NCBI GenBank assembly: GCA_963698025.1
Contig: OY969112.1
Location: 6,629,101-6,693,100, forward strand
Length of the DNA: 64,000 bases
Direction of reading: 5' to 3'
From: an uncultured Acidobacteriota bacterium
GTDB lineage: Bacteria; Acidobacteriota; Thermoanaerobaculia; Multivoradales; UBA5704
Shown: positions 1-53,998 of the stretch, piece after piece
Layout of the letters: every line of letters begins with the position of its first letter
How positions within the stretch are numbered: position 1 is the first letter of the stretch
Notes under the pieces: model-generated
Told to the model about the DNA's origin: nothing
The model's database searches: none
Seen by the model: only the letters and a program-made list of their open reading frames with translations
Made by a program: the position numbers and the translations under genes

Positions 1-753
1 TTGCGCCCGTAAAGCATTGGCCAGGAGGGCCGAGGCGTAGCCCCGGAGCTTATAGCGCGACCGGTCCTCTACGGGAACCAGTTCGGCTACTTGAACCGCA
101 AGCTTTCCAAGCTGGACCGCCAGGGCAGGATTGTTTGAAGCCTGTTGCTTGCTTTCAAGACAGAGATGCTCGCAGAGTGCCCAGCTCTGAAATTCCCTTG
201 CTTCGCGGACGAGAGCTTCCTGAAAGGAGAAGGGATATCTCTGCAATCGTTCCCAGAGGCCAGCGGCATGAGAGGAGTTCTCCGGAGAGAGCATGGTGAC
301 TCCACTCCCGGCGGCATTCATTGGGCCGCTCTTCTGGCATGAGCTCGCGGAGGAGCGATGTCGCACGAGCAAGGCGATGGCCCCGGTGAGCCGAGATACT
401 GCCTCTCCTGCTTGGGCGGTCATCGATGCGATCTGCTCCGAGAGGGCATCTGAGACCTCGGGGGGCACCGTATCGACCCTCTGCCGCGCTCCGGCAGAAC
501 CCCGGCTGAAACGGAGTGCGAGGAGAAAATCCCGTGCCCTGTCGAGATCCGAAAACCCATATTCCATTGAGGAGAGCATGCGCATCAGGCTTTTAAGCTC
601 CGGGAGCTTTTTTCCCGTCTCATACTGAGAGACCGAGCTCGCGGGGACGCCTGACACCCGTGCCAGTTCCGCCTGTGACCAGCCTCTCCCGGTTCTCAAT
701 AGCGCGAGAATCACCCCGAGGTCCGGATCGATATACGACGCGTCTTCTCCCAT
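1..753 (-). CDS. XRE-family HTH transcriptional regulator with a C-terminal helical (TPR-like) domain. The 5' end is complete and the 3' end is truncated by the window edge.
   Basis: ATG at 753-751 on the minus strand, preceded by a GGAGGA Shine-Dalgarno sequence. Translation: MGEDASYIDPDLGVILALLRTGRGWSQAELARVSGVPASSVSQYETGKK..., a classic HTH_XRE. Later residues (...EFQSWALCEHLCLESK...VPVEDRSRYKLRGYASALLANALRAQ) align with the 42173..43645 protein (EFRSWALCELICKESI...RRRLQGYAWAHVGNARRVRG), so the two are paralogs. The frame stays open to position 1, which is why the ORF track (which needs a stop) does not list it. Confidence 0.7.
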   Translation of the reverse strand, partial: MGEDASYIDPDLGVILALLRTGRGWSQAELARVSGVPASSVSQYETGKKLPELKSLMRMLSSMEYGFSDLDRARDFLLALRFSRGSAGARQRVDTVPPEVSDALSEQIASMTAQAGEAVSRLTGAIALLVRHRSSASSCQKSGPMNAAGSGVTMLSPENSSHAAGLWERLQRYPFSFQEALVREAREFQSWALCEHLCLESKQQASNNPALAVQLGKLAVQVAELVPVEDRSRYKLRGYASALLANALRAQ

Positions 754-1005
754 TCTTCCTCCAGAGCAGAGTGGAACCACCGCCCTCTATTTTCGTACAG
801 AGTGAACTCTTTCCTCAAGAAGGGCATGTGTCTTCGAGTTCCGAGTAGAACGATCTGTCCACAGGGTCATTCAGCCTTTGCCTTTGACGAAAGAATCTTC
901 TGCATTGGTGGATCGAGCGCCTCTCTTGCGCCACACTTCCCGCAGGAATCGGCTCGCCGGTGGCCATGGTGGCCCCGGCCCGCAGCCGTTCCAGAGAGGA
1001 ACGCT

Positions 1006-1296
1006 ATGACTCGTGCCCAGATCCGGTATACCGCCGTGCTGTTCCTAGTGCTTCTGGTTTCTGTGCCTCTTGTCTCGGCCGCCGCACCCATCGCCGTCAA
1101 TCGCCACGAGCAGGTCAAGTGGTTCCCCTCTGTTAAAGAAGGGATTGTCTCCAGGCTGTGGAGTCTCCTCGGCAGCTTCTGGGAAAAGGAGGGAAGCTCT
1201 TTGGACCCTGATGGCAAGCTTGTCGCCTACCCTGCCCATGGCAGTGCCGCGGACGAAGGATCGTCGCTTGATCCGAACAGCATGTTTAAGCCCTGA
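1006..1296 (+). CDS. Small secreted protein (97 aa) with a signal peptide and a conserved LWxxLxxFWxK...GSSLDP(D/N) motif. It is a paralog of 43702..44010.
   Basis: ATG at 1006 with an AGAGAGGA Shine-Dalgarno sequence 6 nt upstream. N-terminus MTRAQIRYTAVLFLVLLVSVPLVSAAA is a typical Sec signal with an AxA cleavage site. The mature part contains RLWSLLGSFWEKEGSSLDPDG and a second EGSSLDPN, encoded by different codons, so this is not a recent DNA duplication. It is divergent from the XRE regulator at 1..753. Confidence 0.55.
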   Translation: MTRAQIRYTAVLFLVLLVSVPLVSAAAPIAVNRHEQVKWFPSVKEGIVSRLWSLLGSFWEKEGSSLDPDGKLVAYPAHGSAADEGSSLDPNSMFKP

Positions 1297-36202: not shown

Positions 36203-38635
36203 TCACCCCTCCGCCCGCAAAGTAATCCCCGGCTCCACCCGCGTAGCCCTGCGGGCCGGCAGGTAGCAGGCTAACAAAGCGATCGCCCCCAGCAGGATAG
36301 GCGCCCCCAGGTAGTACAAGGGATCGAGGGCGCTCACCGCGAAGAGCAATCCCGTCAGGGCTCGCGAAAGCAGGAAGGCCGCGGCCAGCGCTCCCACCAG
36401 GCCGATTGCCAATCCGATCAGCACCCAGCGGAACCCCTGCCTTACGACGACCGCCAGCACCTGGGATCTCTGGGCGCCTAGCGCCATGCGGACGCCGATC
36501 TCCTGCCGGCGGGCCGAGACCGATTGCGCCACCAGGCCGTAGATCCCGAGCGCGCAGAGGAGCAGCGCCACGGCCGAGAAGCCGGTGAGCAGGCCCATGG
36601 TCATCCGGCGGCCGGCCAGGGAGTCGGCCACGATCCCCTCCAGCGTCTGCAGGTCGGCCACCGGCTGCTCGGGATCGAGGGCGCGCACCTCCCGGCGCAC
36701 GCTCGCGGCCACCTGCGCCGGCGGCAACGAGGTGCGCACCAGCAGGTTCATGAACGGCGTCGGCAGGTTGATCTGCTGGCCGGCCGGGAGGAAGAACTCG
36801 GCGTCCTTCGCGACGTCCGGTCCGAGCTGCTGGACGTCCTGGACCACCCCGATGATCTCCAGCTTGACCTTGCGGCTCCCCATGACGATCCGCTTGCCGA
36901 GCGGATCCTGGCCCGGGAAGTACTGGCGCGCCAGCGACTCGTTGACCACCGTGGTGAGCGGCGCGTCGACCGGAGTCGCCGGATCGAACTCTCTACCCTT
37001 CACCAGGCGCGTCTGCAGGGTGCGGAAGTAGCCGGGGCTCACCACCATCAGCCAGGCGATCGGCTGGTCGCGCACCTCCAGCGGCCGCCCCTCGACGGCG
37101 AACGGCGATTTCCCCGACCCCTGCACCGGCAGGAAGTCGGACATCGCCGCCGACCGCACCCCCGGCAGCGTCCGCACCCGCTCCAGGATCTGGGCAAAGA
37201 ACGCCCGCCGGTGCCCCTGGTCCGGGTACTTCGCCGTCGGCAGCGAGATCTGCAGCGCGAGCAGCCCCGAGGGATTAAAACCCAGATCCACGCGCGAGAG
37301 CTGGCGGAAGCTCTGGATCAGCAGCGTCGCCCCGATCAGCAGCACCAGGGAGAGGGCGACCTCGACGGCCACGAACACCCCCTGCGCCCGAGCCCGGCGC
37401 GGGCCTGCCGTCGAGCCCCGGGAGCTCTCCCGGAGCTGCGCCGTGGCCTCGGTGCGCAGGCTCTGCAACGCCGGAATCAGCGAGAAGAGCACGCCGGTCA
37501 GCAGCGACAGCAGCAGTGTGAAGACGAGCACCCGGAGATCGATCCCCACCTGGTCGGCGCGCGGCAGGTTGGCGGGGTGGAAGGCGACCAGCAGCCGCAG
37601 CCCGGCATACGCCAGCGCCAGGCCCGCCAGGCTGCCGAGCAGGGCGAGCGCCACCCCCTCGGCCAGCCGCTGGCGGAGCACGCGACCTGCGCTCGCGCCC
37701 AGGGCCATGCGAACCGCCACCTCCTTGCGCCGCGAGAGCCCCTGGGCCAACAGCAGGTTGGCTACGTCGGCACAGGCGATCAGCAGCACCAGGGCGACCG
37801 CCCCCAGCAGCAGGACGAGGGACGAGCGGACGTTGCCCACCAGCTGCTCGGTCATCGGCACCAGGTCCAGGCGGAAGCCGGTGTCCAGATTTCCCGGCAG
37901 CGCCTGGGCGTAGCGGGCGTTGATCCGCCGCACCTCGCCGCGCGCGGCCTCCAGCGCCACCCCCGGCTTCAGCCGCGCCGCCACGTCCAGGTATCCGGCG
38001 CCCAGCTCGATCGCGCGCTCCGGGAGCATCGAGATCTCCTGGGGGCGTGGCAGCCAGACCTGGATGTCGCGGAACGGGAAGTGGAGCACGTCGGGGAGGA
38101 CGCCGACGATCGTCCACGGCTTCCCTTCCAGCCGCACCGCCTTGCCGAGGATCGCCGGGTCGCCGCCGAAACGCTTGCGCCAGAGCCCTTCGCTCAGGAT
38201 CGCCACGTCGCCGCTCGCCTTCTCCTCCTCGGCCGGCGAGAAGCAGCGCCCCAGCAGTGGTTTCACCCCCCAGACCTCGCAGAACTCCTGGCTGATCCGC
38301 TCGCTGTGGAGGACCTCGGGATCGCCGCGCTCGGTGAGGTTGACGTCCTCCTGGTAGCAGGAGGTGACGGCGGCGAAGAGGCCGCTCTCGTGCAGCGCCC
38401 GGACCTTGGGCACCGACAGCCCGCTCTGGCTCAGGCCCTGCTCGGGCGAGCTGGCCCAGATCTGCACCAGGCGCTCGGGATGGGGGTAGGGGAGGGGGCG
38501 CAGCACCACCGTGTTGAGCAGGCTGAAGATGGCCGTGTTGGCGCCGATCCCCAGCCCCAGGGCGAGGACCGCGATCAGCGTGAAGCCGGGGCTCTGCCGC
38601 AGCCGGCGGAAGCCGTATTTCAGATCTCGCAGCAT
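36203..38635 (-). CDS. ABC-transporter permease, duplicated FtsX/MacB-type (ADOP family), 810 aa
   Basis: MLRDLKYGFRRLRQSPGFTLIAVLALGLGIGANTAIFSL... followed by two MacB_PCD plus FtsX modules. There is no adjacent ATPase gene, so it is an orphan permease. Confidence 0.85.
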   Translation of the reverse strand: MLRDLKYGFRRLRQSPGFTLIAVLALGLGIGANTAIFSLLNTVVLRPLPYPHPERLVQIWASSPEQGLSQSGLSVPKVRALHESGLFAAVTSCYQEDVNLTERGDPEVLHSERISQEFCEVWGVKPLLGRCFSPAEEEKASGDVAILSEGLWRKRFGGDPAILGKAVRLEGKPWTIVGVLPDVLHFPFRDIQVWLPRPQEISMLPERAIELGAGYLDVAARLKPGVALEAARGEVRRINARYAQALPGNLDTGFRLDLVPMTEQLVGNVRSSLVLLLGAVALVLLIACADVANLLLAQGLSRRKEVAVRMALGASAGRVLRQRLAEGVALALLGSLAGLALAYAGLRLLVAFHPANLPRADQVGIDLRVLVFTLLLSLLTGVLFSLIPALQSLRTEATAQLRESSRGSTAGPRRARAQGVFVAVEVALSLVLLIGATLLIQSFRQLSRVDLGFNPSGLLALQISLPTAKYPDQGHRRAFFAQILERVRTLPGVRSAAMSDFLPVQGSGKSPFAVEGRPLEVRDQPIAWLMVVSPGYFRTLQTRLVKGREFDPATPVDAPLTTVVNESLARQYFPGQDPLGKRIVMGSRKVKLEIIGVVQDVQQLGPDVAKDAEFFLPAGQQINLPTPFMNLLVRTSLPPAQVAASVRREVRALDPEQPVADLQTLEGIVADSLAGRRMTMGLLTGFSAVALLLCALGIYGLVAQSVSARRQEIGVRMALGAQRSQVLAVVVRQGFRWVLIGLAIGLVGALAAAFLLSRALTGLLFAVSALDPLYYLGAPILLGAIALLACYLPARRATRVEPGITLRAEG

Positions 38636-40103: not shown

Positions 40104-41105
40104 GTGCTGCTGGCAGGCCTTCTGGGAGGATTGGCCGCCTGCGGGCCGGTGGCACCCAAGGGGAAGGCGCCGGCCGCCGCGGCGAAAGGGCGTACCGTGC
40201 CGCCGGTGGGGATCGAGCTGCAGCGGGGGCAGGACCCGCGGGAGCTGGTGCGGATCGAGACCCGCGACGTGGTGATCGGACCGGTCTCCGGGCCTCTGGA
40301 GCGGAAGTTCTTCGCCGATCCCCGGCGGTCGGACATCGCCTGGTACCTCCTGCGCACCTACGCTCCGTTCGAGATGAAGACGCCGGAAGGGGATCTCGCC
40401 TTCAACGGGCAGGGGAAGGTCAAGGCCGGTGCCACCGAGCAGCGGATGATCTTCGAGTGGACCCGCCAGTCGGCGGCCGAGGCGGCGGGTGGGAGGAGCG
40501 GCAGCGCCTACGGGCTGGCGTTCGCCTGGCACCAGGGGAACTCCTCGCTGGACTGCCAGGACGTGGTCGTCTACCTGACGGGCGAGGTGGCCGCCACCTC
40601 GTGCGGTTGGGACGGCGAGGTCCAGGGGCGCCTCGAGCCGGGAGCGCTCGGCCGGGTCTACGCCTGGTTCGACCGCCTGCAGCCGTTTCAGGGGGGAGGC
40701 GCCCAGACCGAGGAGAGCCTGCGCCCGGGCGCTCTCGAAACCAGGCTGGTCTTCGCCGGCAAGGGAAAGCATCCCGCCGCGGCCGGGGAGCAGGCGGAGA
40801 TCCAGTCCTTCGCCGCCGAGCTCTATTCGGAGCTGAACGCGAGGCGGTTAGGAGGAGCCCCCCCCGCGCCACCGCCGGCCGTGCCTCCGGGAACCAAACC
40901 CCCGCAGAAGCCCGCGCCCGTGCCTGTCGAAGCCCCGCCCGCCCGCCTCCTGCTGCCACCGGCGGCTCTCAATCCGAAGCCGGAGGAGATCGTTCTCCAG
41001 CTGCCCGAGAAGCCGCCGGCGCCGCCGCCGTCCGAGAGGCCGCCCAGGGAAGCCCCGCAGCGTCCCGCTCCGGCCGAGGCCGTCCAGCCGCCCGCGCAAC
41101 GGTAA
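40104..41105 (+). CDS. Lipoprotein with a Pro-rich C-terminal tail
   Basis: GTG start. MLLAGLLGGLAACGP has an L-A-A-C lipobox. The C-terminal 90 aa are Pro/Ala-rich (PPAPPPAVPPGTKPPQKPAPVPV...). Confidence 0.5.
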   Translation: MLLAGLLGGLAACGPVAPKGKAPAAAAKGRTVPPVGIELQRGQDPRELVRIETRDVVIGPVSGPLERKFFADPRRSDIAWYLLRTYAPFEMKTPEGDLAFNGQGKVKAGATEQRMIFEWTRQSAAEAAGGRSGSAYGLAFAWHQGNSSLDCQDVVVYLTGEVAATSCGWDGEVQGRLEPGALGRVYAWFDRLQPFQGGGAQTEESLRPGALETRLVFAGKGKHPAAAGEQAEIQSFAAELYSELNARRLGGAPPAPPPAVPPGTKPPQKPAPVPVEAPPARLLLPPAALNPKPEEIVLQLPEKPPAPPPSERPPREAPQRPAPAEAVQPPAQR

Positions 41106-41523
41106 GTTGGCGAGCCCGAGACCTCTCCAGCTGCCGTTGGTATATAGAACGGAGCGATTCTTATATAGAACAGCCATGCGGAATGGACTTCGTGCCTTCT
41201 CTCTATATACAAACCTCCCATTTCTATATAGGCAGGTCTCATCGAGACCTTAAAAGCACGCAAAATTTGCACAGAACCTCATCTCGGAACCTTACAAGCC
41301 CCCATTTTTTGATAGAAACAGACCAAATTCACAGCTTTATGGGGCGTGGAATCCTTGGCAGGACCCCTTTGTATATATAAAAGACCGATTTATATATAAG
41401 AACCAGCCACTGAGCTCATCCGAGGCCACCTGCGTATATATTTTTGGGTCATCTCTATATAGAAAGCACCTCTGGAGTCCTCCCAAAGAGGCGCGAAGTG
41501 GAGACGACGCTAGAGAAAGACGT
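41106..41523. repeat. AT-rich intergenic island (about 42% GC) with nine phased TATATAGAA-like motifs and a short perfect palindrome
   Basis: Motifs at 41140 (tatatagaac), 41161 (tatatagaac), 41203 (ctatatacaa), 41223 (tctatatagg), 41308 (ttgatagaaac), 41371 (tatatataaaag), 41391 (tatatataagaac), 41435 (tatatatttttg) and 41457 (tatatagaaag). Spacings are 21, 42-44, 20, 85, 63, 20, 44 and 22 bp, all multiples of about 21 bp. ggtctc-atc-gagacc lies at 41234-41248. The island sits between convergent gene ends. Confidence 0.6.
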
Positions 41524-41808
41524 TCATCGGCCCCCCGGCTCCCGTTTTTTCCGCGAGTAGGCCGCCGCAGCCAGGAGATCCCGTATGGCGGGGCCGATGC
41601 AGTCGGCGAGGACGCACTCGATCACCGCGCGGAGCTCCGTGGCGACATCGTTCTCCTCTTCGCTCTCCTCTTCCCGATCTCCGGTGGCCGGCGCCGGCAG
41701 GCTTCCGTGAAGCGTCCGCAATCGCTTCTCGATCTTTTTCAGGTCCTCGGCCACACCCTGTAGATTGTCCTGCACCGCGGCTTCCAGCTCCGAATCACCC
41801 TCGCTCAT
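41524..41808 (-). CDS. Small acidic hypothetical protein (94 aa)
   Basis: ATG with a GGAGGGAGG Shine-Dalgarno sequence. MSEGDSELEAAVQDNLQGVAEDLKKIEKRLRTLHG...REEESEEENDVATELRAVIECVLADC... Divergent from the XRE-TPR regulator. Confidence 0.5.
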   Translation of the reverse strand: MSEGDSELEAAVQDNLQGVAEDLKKIEKRLRTLHGSLPAPATGDREEESEEENDVATELRAVIECVLADCIGPAIRDLLAAAAYSRKKREPGGR

Positions 41809-42093: not shown

Positions 42094-42152
42094 CCTTCAA
42101 CGTGTGGGGGTGTCACGCCATGGTCCTGGCTTACACTCTATATCGTTGAAGG
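42094..42152. promoter_or_regulatory. 9-bp inverted repeat (ccttcaacg ... cgttgaagg) 21 nt upstream of the XRE-TPR regulator start; a candidate operator
   Basis: Arms at 42094-42102 and 42144-42152 with a 41-bp spacer. The position is consistent with autoregulation. No -10/-35 assignment was attempted. Confidence 0.2.
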
Positions 42153-42172
42153 ACGACATCGGAGGGAGCTGC

Positions 42173-43645
42173 ATGGCGTCGAAGAAATTGTCGGATCTGA
42201 ACCTCGCGCTGACGGTGATGCGGTCCGCGCTGAGCTGGAATCAGGCGGAGCTGGCCCGGGTGGCCGGGCTGCCGCCCAATGCCGTCTCGGACTTCGAGCG
42301 TGGGAACCGGGCGTTCTCCCTCGAAAGGCTGGAGGAGCTGGCCAGCGTCATGGGGCTGCCGCCGGGGGCGGTCGACCAGGCCCGCATCTTCGTCCGTTCC
42401 ATGGGCCAGCAGGCCAGGGCTCCCGGCGATCCCGACGAGGACGCCGAAGCGGACCGCAGGCACGTGGAGCAGGTCGCCGCCCAGGCTGGGAACGTCACCA
42501 TGGAATTCGCTCGCACGCTGCTGAATTCCCTCACCGCCGAGGGCCGGGCCCTGGTGTTCCGCCGGCAGGCGCGGGTGCTCTGGCGGAGGATGCAGAGGCA
42601 CACGCCCTCCGAGCGGCGAGCGTTCGTCGAGGCGGATCCGGAATTCCGGAGCTGGGCTCTCTGCGAGCTGATCTGCAAGGAGAGCATCAAGGCGGCAGCC
42701 GACAATGCCGATCGCGCCGGCGAGCTCGCGGATCTGGCCCTGCTCATCGCAGACCTCGCGCCCCTCGAGGCGAGCTGGCGCCGGCGCCTCCAGGGCTACG
42801 CCTGGGCTCACGTCGGCAATGCCCGGCGGGTCCGGGGTGACCTGCCGGGCGCTGAAGAGGCCTTTTCCCGTGCAGGCGAGCTCTGGAAAACCGGCACGCA
42901 CGGTGATCCGGGGCTCCTCGATGAGGCCCAGGTGTTCAGCCTGGAAGCTTCCCTGCGCACGACTCAGGGGCGCTTGCCAGAAGCCGCGATCCTCCTCGAT
43001 CAGGCGCTCGCGCTTGCTCCCAGGAATCTCAGACCGAATCTGCTCCTTCAAAAGGCAAGGCTGCTGGAGTGGGCCGGGAGCTATGAGAGTGCCTTAACGA
43101 CGCTGGCGGAGGCGGCTCCTCTCATTACTCAACAGAACGAGCCGAGGCTACTCTTCATGCTACGGCACAACTATGCCTCGAACCTGACACATCTCGGGCG
43201 GTATGCGGAAGCCGAGGCGTTACTGCCCGAGATCCAGCCGCTGGCAGTCCGGCTCGATAACCAGCTTGACGGATTGCGAGTGCATTGGATGCGGGGGCGG
43301 ATCGAGGCTGGCCTGGGAAAGATGGATGACGCTCTCGTGGCGTTGTCCCAGGTACGGACAGAGTTCGCGGCCCGGGGCACCGCCTATGACGCCGCACTGA
43401 TTACGCTTGAGTTGGCCACACTCTATCTGGAGCAAGGGCGTACCTGGGAAGTCAAGACGCTCGCGCGCCAGATGACGCCGATTTTTCACACGCAAGGAGT
43501 TCATCGCGAGGCTTTAGCGGCTCTAAAGCTGTTCTGTGAAGCGGCCGAAAAGGAATTGGCCACTGTGGAATTAGCGCGACGAATGGTGGAGTACCTTTAT
43601 AGAGCTCGCCACAACCCGACACTCCGTTTTGGGGAGCGCCCATGA
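42173..43645 (+). CDS. XRE-family HTH transcriptional regulator with a long C-terminal TPR-like helical domain (490 aa)
   Basis: Start at internal Met 24 (MASKKLSDLNLALTVMRSALSWNQAELARVAGLPPNAVSDFERGN...) with a GGAGGGA Shine-Dalgarno sequence. The C-terminal 300 aa form repeated helical hairpins (…YESALTTLAEAAPL…LGRYAEAEALL…LGKMDDALVAL…YDAALITLELATLYLEQGRTWE…). Paralog of the partial gene at 1..753. Confidence 0.8.
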   Translation: MASKKLSDLNLALTVMRSALSWNQAELARVAGLPPNAVSDFERGNRAFSLERLEELASVMGLPPGAVDQARIFVRSMGQQARAPGDPDEDAEADRRHVEQVAAQAGNVTMEFARTLLNSLTAEGRALVFRRQARVLWRRMQRHTPSERRAFVEADPEFRSWALCELICKESIKAAADNADRAGELADLALLIADLAPLEASWRRRLQGYAWAHVGNARRVRGDLPGAEEAFSRAGELWKTGTHGDPGLLDEAQVFSLEASLRTTQGRLPEAAILLDQALALAPRNLRPNLLLQKARLLEWAGSYESALTTLAEAAPLITQQNEPRLLFMLRHNYASNLTHLGRYAEAEALLPEIQPLAVRLDNQLDGLRVHWMRGRIEAGLGKMDDALVALSQVRTEFAARGTAYDAALITLELATLYLEQGRTWEVKTLARQMTPIFHTQGVHREALAALKLFCEAAEKELATVELARRMVEYLYRARHNPTLRFGERP

Positions 43646-43701: not shown

Positions 43702-44010
43702 TCAATGTCCGCTTACGCAACGGCCATTGGGATCGATCGACATCCCATTTTCGCAGGGCCCTGCGGAGCTACTGGTGGTGGGCTGGCTCGTGAGCAGGCC
43801 ATTCGGATCGGCACTGCCCCTGGCCTTGCTCCAGAAATTGGCGAGAGCTCCCCAAAGCTGCCCGAAAACTCCCCCCACCTCCTGGGCGACGGATGGGCCG
43901 GAGCGATGTGAGACACGGCTCCGGAGCTCGGAGGCGGAGACCCACGGGCTGACGAGGGTCAATCCCAGGACGAGAGCGACCACGGCACGGCGGAACGACA
44001 GACTGGACAT
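43702..44010 (-). CDS. Small secreted protein (102 aa), paralog of 1006..1296
   Basis: Start at internal Met 12 (MSSLSFRRAVVALVLGLTLVSPWVSAS, a signal peptide) with an AAAGGAG Shine-Dalgarno sequence. Mature region GQLWGALANFWSKARGSADPNG ... NGMSIDPNG aligns with RLWSLLGSFWEKEGSSLDPDG ... EGSSLDPN of the 1006..1296 product. It supersedes the opposite-strand ORF 43642..43911. Confidence 0.55.
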   Translation of the reverse strand: MSSLSFRRAVVALVLGLTLVSPWVSASELRSRVSHRSGPSVAQEVGGVFGQLWGALANFWSKARGSADPNGLLTSQPTTSSSAGPCENGMSIDPNGRCVSGH

Positions 44011-44151
44011 GACAGCGGCTCCTTTCGAGGCGGCTTCCACCACGGCCTTCAGGGCCGGGCCGGCGCCTCACCTGGGTATGTTGCCTCCAGACGTGCCGGA
44101 AAATCACCCCAAGAAGTGCATGAGGTATGCGTACCGAGGAGGAAAATCAGG

Positions 44152-44559
44152 ATGCCACGCCGGGACAACACCGAAGACGCGAAGGTCGTCGTCGCCTTTC
44201 TGCGCCTGCTCCGAGGCTGGACTCAGACGGAGTTGGCGGAGGCCGCGGGGCTCTCCGCCAGTGCCGTCAGCCGCTATGAGAGCGGGGACATCGTCCCCAG
44301 CCGCGAGGCACTGGAGGAGATCGCGGTGGCCACGGGCCTGCCGTTGCGGATGCTGGACCGGGTCTTCATCTGGGTCGGCGCGGCGCGAGCCGCCGTGGAG
44401 AGCGCGGCCGATCCGGGCGATCCGGACCGGCTGATCGCCGCCGCCGCGAGTGAGATGACGGCCGGGCTCACAGACCTCTTCGACTCCATCACGGCCAGGA
44501 TGCTCGCCGGCCTTCCGGACCTCGAAGCCGGCCCCTGGGGGAGGCGCTCCACGGTATAA
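44152..44559 (+). CDS. Short XRE-family HTH protein (135 aa); equals the N-terminal module of the XRE-TPR regulators and lacks the TPR-like domain
   Basis: Start at internal Met 13 with a GAGGAGGA Shine-Dalgarno sequence. LRGWTQTELAEAAGLSASAVSRYESGDIVPSREALEEIAVATGLPLRMLDRVFIWV...PGDPDR aligns with ELARVAGLPPNAVSDFERGNRAFSLERLEELASVMGLPPGAVDQARIFV...PGDPDED of the 42173 protein. Divergent from the secreted peptide gene, 141 bp away. Confidence 0.7.
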   Translation: MPRRDNTEDAKVVVAFLRLLRGWTQTELAEAAGLSASAVSRYESGDIVPSREALEEIAVATGLPLRMLDRVFIWVGAARAAVESAADPGDPDRLIAAAASEMTAGLTDLFDSITARMLAGLPDLEAGPWGRRSTV

Positions 44560-44641: not shown

Positions 44642-45616
44642 ATGAGGCGTGCGGTATCTGCTCTGCTGGCGTTGGTAATGATCGCAAGCTGCGGCATCCT
44701 GTCCCCGGTCACGGCACAGACCAAGGCGGTTTCATCCGGCGTAACGATGACCAACGCCTATGATGCCTTTGGGCCGGAACGCAAGGGCCTGAAGCAGGAT
44801 TTTGGCTTCTCTTGCGTCGTGAGCTACAAGGGAAAATGGATCTTGTTCGACTCGGGGACCGACGCCAGGGTTTTCGAAAGCAATCTCAGGGCGCTGAAGA
44901 TCGATCTGCGGAAAATTGACATCGCCATCGTGTCGCATGGGCATTACGACCACATCGGCGGCTTCGATTACCTGCTGAGCGTCAACCCGAAGGTCAAGAT
45001 TTACCTCCCCAACGATTTTTTCTCTCTCGGCGCTCCCATCAAGTTTCCCTTTCGCGAGCCCGAGCTGGACGCGGCGAAGGCACTGCCTAAAGACGAGCAG
45101 TATTTTCGCGGCGAGCGCGTCGTCGAGGGCATGGTCACCGTGCCGACGGGCAGGTTCTGGAAGTCGAACGTGGAGTACGTCACCGAACCGAAGGAAGTGC
45201 TGCCCGGCGTTACCTTGATCCCGACGACCTCCAAGTTGATGGGAACGTTCATCAAATATCCTCCTTTTGGTGATGAGCATCCTCAGTTCATCGGCATGCC
45301 CGAGCTGTCGGTTTCATTTGCCACCGCCAAGGGCGAAATCATCCTGGCGGGCTGCTCGCACAGCACCATCGAGACGATCATTCAGGAGACCCAGAAAGTC
45401 CGGAAGGGAAAGATCTACCTGGTCGCCGGAGGGTTCCACCTCATCCCCTATGGCCGCGAGTACATCGAGGGCTTGGCGAAGCGCATGCGCGAGCAGTACG
45501 GTGTGGAGTCCGTCGCTCCGGCGCACTGCACCGGGCAGCTGGCGTTCTCGATTTTTCATCAGGTGTTTGGCGATAACTACAGAGTCTTTGGGCTCGGTAC
45601 GACGATTAACCTCTAG
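44642..45616 (+). CDS. Secreted MBL-fold metallo-hydrolase
   Basis: AGGAGAGAGAGA Shine-Dalgarno sequence. Signal peptide MRRAVSALLALVMIASCGILSPVTAQ. Contains SHGHYDHIGG (the HxHxDH motif). About 55% GC, lower than the surroundings. Confidence 0.8.
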   Translation: MRRAVSALLALVMIASCGILSPVTAQTKAVSSGVTMTNAYDAFGPERKGLKQDFGFSCVVSYKGKWILFDSGTDARVFESNLRALKIDLRKIDIAIVSHGHYDHIGGFDYLLSVNPKVKIYLPNDFFSLGAPIKFPFREPELDAAKALPKDEQYFRGERVVEGMVTVPTGRFWKSNVEYVTEPKEVLPGVTLIPTTSKLMGTFIKYPPFGDEHPQFIGMPELSVSFATAKGEIILAGCSHSTIETIIQETQKVRKGKIYLVAGGFHLIPYGREYIEGLAKRMREQYGVESVAPAHCTGQLAFSIFHQVFGDNYRVFGLGTTINL

Positions 45617-53882: not shown

Positions 53883-53998
53883 CCCGGGATTGAAATCCCG
53901 GGCTACTCACGGCCGTCCCATCCGGGACTTCCCAAAACCCTTTGCCTCCGAAGCCCCGGGAGGGGCGACTGTCGGTAGCCCGGGATTTCAATCCCGGG
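53883..53998. repeat. Pair of inverted 25-nt elements (gcccgggattgaaatcccgggctac) flanking 76 bp; MITE-like, and each terminus is itself palindromic
   Basis: cccgggattgaaatcccggg at 53883-53902 and cccgggatttcaatcccggg at 53979-53998 (the exact reverse complement, including the flanking gc...ctac). Lies between the ECF sigma start and the cytochrome-like lipoprotein gene. Confidence 0.6.

Follow-up and report, generated by a model that had tools for sequence, protein, structure and literature searches.

Does the repeated pairing of a regulator gene with the gene of a small secreted peptide reflect a functional module, and if so, what might such a module do? The question is raised by a stretch of 64,000 nucleotides (hereafter the window) from the genome of an uncultured Acidobacteriota bacterium (GenBank assembly GCA_963698025.1, contig OY969112.1), which carries one such pair at its left edge, regL and pepL, and a second further to the right, regR and pepR. 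A preliminary description of the window had taken the repetition as a sign of a functional module, duplicated and reshuffled, rather than of chance adjacency. Our results indicate that the module is real and conserved and that the pairing is not due to chance, that it is abundant in Thermoanaerobaculia, and that the peptides, each with its dedicated regulator, form a previously undescribed, very large secreted-peptide family.

At the left edge, a frame of 251 open codons on the minus strand (1..753), beginning MGEDASYIDPDLGV and continuing past the edge of the window, encodes the N-terminal 251 amino acids (aa) of regL, which translation, Pfam and homology identify as a regulator with an XRE-type helix-turn-helix (HTH) domain (HTH_31, 5.7e-10; HTH_3, 9e-10) and tetratricopeptide repeats (TPRs). 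GGAGG stands 4 nt ahead of its ATG (reverse complement of 754-775), in agreement with the strong Shine-Dalgarno sequence first reported there, and the reported collinearity of these residues with the regulator at 42173..43645 holds over 241 residues at 33% identity (E = 3e-31). The divergent gene pepL (1006..1296, plus strand) lies across a 252-bp spacer (754..1005). The preliminary description gave its distance and strand correctly and its length as 97 aa, which becomes 96 aa since the stop codon had been counted. The precursor, identical to protein P0003 of our collection, has a signal peptide at about residues 1-25 with the cleavage motif VSA/A (the slash marks the cleavage site), an amphipathic helix (42-62) and two core repeats, EGSSLDPDG and EGSSLDPNS; its AlphaFold2 (AF2) model comprises helices at 3-25 and 42-62 and a disordered repeat region (63-96). 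One related locus, L005, is syntenic: it reproduces the gene order at the left edge of the window, namely a regulator, a divergent peptide gene, a GNAT acetyltransferase and a BNR-repeat protein. The regulator of L005 is the orthologue of regL (472 aa, 65% identical to regL) and combines an HTH with TPR_12/TPR_MalT matches, and it aligns with regR over its full length at 41% identity.

The second pair consists of regR (42173..43645, plus strand), a 490-aa protein with an XRE-type HTH, a helical linker and about eight TPR-like hairpins (Pfam HTH_3, 3.1e-9, with TPR_12, TPR_2 and TPR_19), and, convergent with it across a 56-bp gap, pepR (43702..44010, minus strand), a 102-aa secreted precursor identical to P0001. 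The latter has a signal peptide (VSA/SE), an amphipathic helix and the cores RGSADPNG and C-E-NGMSIDPNGRC, and is 35% identical to pepL over 91 residues (E = 3e-12). Divergent from pepR lies hthR (44116..44559, plus strand), an HTH-only paralogue recognised by homology and Pfam (HTH, 3.9e-14; 40% identical to the HTH of regL). Its orthologues of 267-277 aa match regulator residues 1-276; the window copy is shortened to 147 aa, about 75% identical to the first 145 or so residues of the orthologues in L009 and L010, and the remainder was not found in the window in any frame, that is, it has been deleted. On the other side of regR and divergent from it, orf94 (41524..41808, minus strand) encodes an acidic 94-aa protein without Pfam, PHROG or PADLOC match, which its recurrence in related loci marks as an accessory gene of this cassette. 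The contrast in geometry on which the preliminary description remarked, a divergent pair on the left and, on the right, a convergent pair with a short HTH paralogue divergent from the peptide gene, is confirmed.

The evidence that the pairing is real comes from its recurrence. Within the whole 64-kb window, tblastn with the five module proteins found only these paralogues (E 4e-29, 3.5e-9 and 6e-9; next best E at least 0.1). A profile of the two peptides run against 5.8 billion proteins recovered 58 relatives, all named ones being from Thermoanaerobaculia/Acidobacteria metagenome-assembled genomes. All ten peptide-seeded loci (L001-L003 and L005-L011), which come from other genomes and metagenomes, have one to three peptide genes with a regL/regR-type regulator as their immediate neighbour; a narrower peptide alignment, used for the genome scan, found 4 loci. 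L004, from a Spirochaetaceae, was rejected as a false positive, having no regulator and no match to the peptide hidden Markov model (HMM). The regulator family itself exceeds 1,017 clusters at 90% identity. A regulator-seeded metagenome scan yielded 80 loci, and when the peptide HMM was run on their six-frame open reading frames (ORFs), a peptide gene was found in 63: convergent just downstream of the regulator in 56, divergent upstream in 5, upstream on the same strand in 1 and inside a composite match in 1. As 16 of the 17 peptide-less loci have less than 400 bp of flank after the regulator, 63 of 64 informative loci have an adjoining peptide gene. Two findings had been named in the preliminary description as ones that would speak against a module, namely a full-length left regulator without a TPR-like domain and many regulator paralogues without peptide genes; the 472-aa orthologue in L005 has the TPR domain, and the pairing in 63 of 64 loci disposes of the second. 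All-against-all clustering of ORFs from 90 related loci left the regulator, its truncated paralogues, the peptide and orf94 as the only recurrent families, with no recurrent enzyme, exporter, protease, permease or immunity gene, and the flanks vary by locus, being unrelated housekeeping genes, transposases or toxin-antitoxin genes. The source genome (7.05 Mb) itself has at least three modules: pepL/regL, P0001/P0341 (that is, pepR/regR), and a third set of peptide P0015, regulator P0084 and HTH-only protein P0066.

The two geometries of the window are each widespread. In the L type, the regulator is divergent from the peptide gene or genes (L001, L003, L005, L007, L011, L051, L073, L080 and L087), frequently accompanied by an additional paralogue that consists of TPRs only and by two or three peptide genes in tandem; the TPR-only paralogues adjoin the peptide genes in L001, L003 and L011. 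The R type is a four-gene cassette in which orf94 is divergent from the HTH-TPR regulator, the regulator convergent with the peptide gene, and the latter divergent from the HTH-only gene (L008-L010 and 56 metagenome loci). Homologues of orf94 occupy the same relative position in 42 related loci and without exception diverge from the regulator of the R type; those of L008-L010 are 88-94 aa long, and in L009 and L010 a TPR-only gene of 392-395 aa follows, which the window lacks. In one respect the preliminary reading, otherwise supported, needs qualifying: the two geometries are two old subtypes and not a recent reshuffle in the source genome, regL and regR being about 33-41% and pepL and pepR about 35% identical, and each arrangement is conserved in other genomes. 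There are also signs of module turnover: a DDE transposase inserted between regulators and peptide genes in L003 (7750-9144), a YhgA-like transposase beside the module in L002 (8926-10152), and, in L005 (10376-10603) and L006, a degenerate second peptide copy of which the signal peptide alone is left. In the source genome, the L module may itself be a decaying copy or pseudogene, since full-length regL is absent from the protein collection, which contains every other module protein of that genome (pepL, pepR, regR as P0341, P0015, P0084 and P0066), and since the last core of pepL is atypical in reading DPNS where its orthologues have DPNG.

The peptides belong to a family that no Pfam or NCBIfam model matches. 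When 1.84 billion cluster representatives were searched exhaustively with HMMER, 2,135 members (clusters at 50% identity) were recovered at E <= 1e-3, of which 742 reached E <= 1e-10; most members are 95-150 aa long, and many exceed 100 aa. All of them share one layout: a Sec-type signal peptide that ends in A-x-A, then an amphipathic helix of the pattern LWxxLxxxWxK, and two to five core copies with the consensus [D/K/E]-[N/E/A]-G-[C/S]-x-[L/I/V/A]-D-P-[N/D/S]-G-[R]-[C], in which the shared scaffold is G-x-x-x-D-P-x-G; a pair of cysteines flanks each core in many relatives. Signal peptides were judged by eye and rule (an R/K N-terminus, a hydrophobic core of 12-18 residues and A-x-A), and the cleavage motifs in pepL, pepR and the listed relatives are VSA/A, VSA/SE and ASA/SE. 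AlphaFold models two helices and a disordered C-terminal repeat region. Three giant secreted proteins, P0206 (783 aa), P0274 (669 aa) and P0315 (731 aa), came up in this search: dozens of x-[LIVM]-D-P-[ND]-G-[KR] units, spaced at intervals of about 10 residues, precede a series of VDEWDxEVVKR repeats in them. They look like polyprotein-type precursors made of the same core motif.

What sets the cores apart is how they vary. Among 767 repeats from 268 non-redundant precursors, identity within a precursor and between precursors is 82% and 42%, respectively, at core position -3, 70% and 31% at position -2, and 64% and 31% at position -1, while at linker positions 4-8 residues away it is 13-18% and 9-13%. 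Likeness among the copies of one precursor is thus limited to the core, which itself changes from locus to locus, as in the variants CSY, CIL, CHL, CGI-H, CTI, CQL, TSI, PNI and SSL. This combination of homogenised yet locus-specific residues resembles, by analogy, the pattern of pherotypes. The preliminary description had suggested testing whether regulator and peptide paralogues co-diverge, and their distances do correlate (Mantel r = 0.51, with none of 2000 permutations as high). Core types track regulator clades, with switches between regulators just 20% apart (L059 versus L052). We regard this co-divergence as supportive of a receptor-ligand reading, not as decisive.

A structured 5' leader is a further common feature of the peptide genes. 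Among 64 non-redundant upstream regions, a ribosome binding site (RBS) of the form GAAAGGAG lies at -14 to -7, a palindrome GGYC-N5-GRCC occupies a fixed position at -43 to -52 in 30 of the 64 leaders (background 0.078 per 160 nt), and a box CAYYATW is found at -80 to -71 in 25 of them. The same palindrome answers the earlier suggestion that the two intergenic regions of the window be compared for operator motifs, as both contain it, at 962-974 and 44044-44056. It caps a longer hairpin, and the outer stem of this hairpin (GAGGCG...CGCCUC in the R type) stops immediately short of the RBS. Upstream of pepL, this hairpin (945..992, plus strand) is long and imperfect, with the apical palindrome GGCCATGGTGGCC at 962-974 and an RBS, GAGG, at 996-999, and the leader RNA has a folding energy of -37.5 kcal/mol (z = -2.56). 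Upstream of pepR (44026..44070, minus strand), the outer stem GAGGCG/CGCCUC encloses the apical palindrome GGCCCTGAAGGCC at 44044-44056, again followed by GAAAGGAG. Between -70 and -10, the leaders are far more stably folded than their dinucleotide shuffles, the mean z being -1.93 +/- 0.16 where coding controls have 0.00 (Mann-Whitney p = 4e-14). Of the whole hairpin, RNAalifold detected the apical 5-bp stem alone. Four of the five base pairs in this stem show compensatory changes, which fit an RNA hairpin and a DNA palindrome alike and so cannot separate the two. No Rfam family matched the leader, and scans of both intergenic regions for sigma-70 promoters and intrinsic terminators found nothing. 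In the palindrome, ATGGA or ATGAA often makes up the 5-nt loop. An upstream ORF of 15 codons starts at the loop ATG in L016, and its TGA overlaps the start codon of the peptide gene (ATGA); the loop trait was noted in L016, L023, L066 and the window (962-974); pepR has CTGAA instead, so that a loop ATG is not universal.

On the regulator side, the AF2 model of regR (pLDDT 89.8) consists of the HTH (residues 8-59), a long helical linker of about 90 residues and about eight TPR-like hairpins up to residue 478. The model resembles NprR and Rap; generic TPR proteins match it equally well, and APC subunits score as high. The modelled fold is compatible with a peptide-binding RRNPP-like receptor and is not diagnostic of one. 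Searches of Pfam, NCBIfam and PHROGs gave no subfamily-specific match for the regulator. Two other identities for the locus were considered and rejected. Matches to the NCBIfam models HipB, Y4mF and MqsA, which might suggest a type II toxin-antitoxin system, were confined to the HTH and below the cut-off (for example, 35.7 versus 71.65 bits), and no toxin-like gene neighbours the module in the window; a phage or defence reading failed likewise, PHROGs and PADLOC having matched the HTH alone.

Taking these observations together, we tentatively favour reading each copy as a self-contained signalling module of peptide and receptor in a diderm phylum, akin to the RRNPP peptide quorum-sensing systems, which have so far been known from Gram-positive Firmicutes alone; we would put this reading only a little short of an even chance. 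Under such a scheme, the precursor would be exported by way of its Sec-type signal and its pro-region cut into core-containing peptides, which would accumulate outside the cell and then be taken up again. Inside, they would bind the concave face of the TPR domain and alter DNA binding by the regulator, and this in turn would set the transcription of the module itself and of further targets. The variable residues x1-x3 of [D/K/E]-x-G-x1-x2-x3-D-P-x-G might give each paralogous module its own specificity, and the invariant G..DP.G scaffold might serve processing or anchoring in the receptor. The peptide gene would probably be controlled at the structured leader with its fixed palindrome, which could work at the DNA level, as an operator, or at the level of RNA, and orf94 and the paralogues reduced to an HTH or to TPRs might act as accessory modulators. 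A broader claim is possible too, though we hold it with more doubt: that this is the first RRNPP-type system outside the Firmicutes, comprising a very large family, diversified into pherotypes, of cytoplasmic HTH-TPR receptors together with precursors that carry several, often disulfide-looped, copies of a G-x3-D-P-x-G pheromone, with several private channels of peptide communication per genome in soil Thermoanaerobaculia, which are diderm Acidobacteriota.

The signalling reading gains from the published RRNPP signature, whose five features are a small propeptide, a Sec-type signal, a receptor of 250-500 aa, TPRs and direct adjacency (PMC10075063). All five are present here, the size of pepR being marginal. 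For a propeptide range of 10-100 aa, pepL has 96 aa and pepR, at 102 aa, is just above the limit. The TPR-bearing receptors fall within about 250-500 aa (490 aa for regR and 472 aa for the regL orthologue), and the genes are direct neighbours with gaps of 252 bp and 56 bp. The domain that marks XRE-family transcription factors, HTH_3/HTH_31 at the N-terminus, is found in regL, regR and hthR. The recurrent adjacency, the lack of other recurrent gene families, the co-divergence, the pherotype-like cores, the predicted disorder of the C-terminal repeats and the presence of at least three modules in the source genome count in favour of signalling as well. Moreover, tandemly duplicated pheromones within one propeptide have been documented in Rap-Phr systems (PMC11343458).

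However, several points weigh against it. The link between peptide and TPR domain is indirect, resting on co-divergence and locus-specific cores, and the former is not decisive because plain linkage also predicts a correlation. Run against all PDB sequences, a profile built from 38 regulators recovered only XRE HTH proteins and generic TPRs and no RRNPP receptor. The host is an Acidobacteriota and not a Firmicute, judging from the named homologues, an Acido-Lenti-1 RNA in the window and a G+C content of 67.8%, and as a diderm it would have to pass the peptide across its outer membrane twice; in the loci, no oligopeptide permease is linked to the modules. The Cys-bracketed cores suggest extracytoplasmic disulfide loops, which are a poor fit with the reducing cytoplasm where the receptor would meet them. 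Finally, the G..DP.G scaffold is nearly invariant across very divergent modules and recurs in dozens of copies in the three giant proteins, and the core motif may have an intrinsic structural or chemical role. We conclude that it would be wrong to classify the module within the RRNPP family, because neither homology to its receptors nor a Firmicute host was found and peptide binding by the TPR domain is a prediction.

The next most probable explanation has no signalling in it. The HTH-TPR protein could be a dedicated local regulator of a secreted effector, whether metal-binding, surface-binding, adhesive or antimicrobial, with the TPR domain sensing another ligand or partner and no feedback by the peptide. 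A scaffold that is common to all subtypes and reused in giant repeat proteins suggests an intrinsic biochemical role, Cys-bracketed loops would suit a stable extracellular product, a conserved leader with a palindrome stands ahead of the peptide gene, and the genes beyond the cassette are unrelated housekeeping genes. An effector, however, has no need of a private regulator paralogue for each copy in nearly every locus, and predicts neither several co-diverging pairs per genome nor variable repeat residues that are homogenised and yet locus-specific. We consider this explanation somewhat unlikely.

Two others fare worse. The repeated short cores, the Cys-x-x-D-P-x-G-x-C units and the disordered repeat region recall multi-core precursors of ribosomally synthesized and post-translationally modified peptides (RiPPs), and the peptide might be such a precursor, or that of a bacteriocin, with its enzymes, exporter and immunity encoded elsewhere and the HTH-TPR protein as pathway regulator. 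This is improbable: the 90 loci show no recurrent gene for a modifying enzyme, an ABC exporter, a protease or immunity, the signal peptide is an ordinary Sec signal rather than the leader of a dedicated exporter, and the flanks change from one locus to another. Another possibility is a secretion-coupled partner switch: the intracellular partner of the TPR domain would be the precursor before its export, or else orf94 or the truncated paralogues, and the regulator would report export flux or the state of the envelope instead of cell density. TPR proteins commonly bind extended segments of partner proteins, and the conserved accessory genes (orf94 in 42 loci, the HTH-only and the TPR-only genes) suggest protein-protein control; as this scheme leaves the likeness of cores within one precursor and their pherotype-like diversity unexplained, we likewise give it little credence. 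Chance adjacency, or a meaningless segmental duplication in the source genome, could appeal to there being merely two pairs in the window, but its probability is practically nil and it is already refuted by the pairing in more than 70 independent loci, the age of the paralogues (33-41% identity) and the conservation of each geometry elsewhere.

Some features around the right-hand cassette deserve mention in their own right. G+C at third codon positions is 0.76 for regR (taken over 42104-43645) and 0.77 for a secreted metallo-beta-lactamase-fold gene (44642-45616) that begins 83 bp past the hthR stop, and 0.88-0.97 for most long genes of the window. An AT-rich non-coding island of about 400 bp (41105-41500), between the stop of a lipoprotein-like ORF and that of orf94, holds all 10 TATATA hexamers of the 64-kb window in about eight boxes (YTATATAGAA / TCTATATA), some of them as inverted pairs; as a shared operator array of the cassette it was rejected, there being no such cluster in any of 91 related loci. 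The unrelated neighbours of the cassette include an 810-aa MacB_PCD/FtsX permease (36203-38635, minus strand), MgtE, an MprF-like lysylphosphatidylglycerol synthase, formate-tetrahydrofolate ligase and ferritin. The sole Rfam match in the window is an Acido-Lenti-1 small RNA (RF01687) at 53883-53929 on the plus strand, at 38 bits versus a gathering threshold of 37, which fits an origin in the Acidobacteriota.

Gram-negative bacteria are thought to rely on small molecules for signalling. Signalling by genetically encoded peptide pheromones through cytoplasmic TPR receptors is considered a speciality of the Firmicutes (PMC10075063, PMC9765709), and in the literature searched we found nothing linking RRNPP-type systems or the core motif to Acidobacteriota or Thermoanaerobaculia. 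Here the family comes to more than 1,000 clusters of regulators and about 2,000 of peptides, with several co-diverging pairs per genome, in a soil phylum that is abundant and poorly studied. If the signalling reading is true, diderms too would use the RRNPP logic, it would have to be asked by what route such peptides pass the outer membrane both outward and inward, and synthetic peptides and the leader with its palindrome would become a ready handle on the social behaviour of Acidobacteriota. Even if the peptides are effectors, an undescribed and very large secreted-peptide family with dedicated regulators has been defined.

How, then, does the module compare with systems already known? The TPR_12 sensor domains of the MalT domain III or LGN type come without the HTH-TPR fusion of the module layout and without a cognate secreted peptide gene, and the match to them shows only the fold of a generic peptide- or ligand-binding TPR array. 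The Rap-Phr systems with tandem pheromones (phage phi3T and phi105 Rap; PMC11343458) share with the module the presence of several putative pheromone copies in one propeptide, and the TPR-only paralogues beside L-type peptide genes recall the HTH-less Rap proteins. Rap, however, acts via protein-protein interaction and not DNA binding, and the Phr propeptides, of 38-60 aa and without cysteine loops, belong to Firmicutes and their phages. With NprR-NprX and PlcR-PapR of the Bacillus cereus group, sequence homology of the regulators is undetectable, and the module differs in the helical linker of about 90 residues between HTH and TPRs, in the longer precursor (96-150 aa) with its amphipathic helix and often Cys-bracketed G..DP.G scaffold, in its usually convergent arrangement with a gap of 20-200 bp, and in its extra genes (orf94, HTH-only and TPR-only). 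What NprR-NprX and PlcR-PapR have in common with the module is the architecture itself: a cytoplasmic protein of 400-500 aa in which an N-terminal XRE-type HTH is joined to a TPR superhelix, next to a gene for a small Sec-exported propeptide whose candidate active part lies near the C-terminus.

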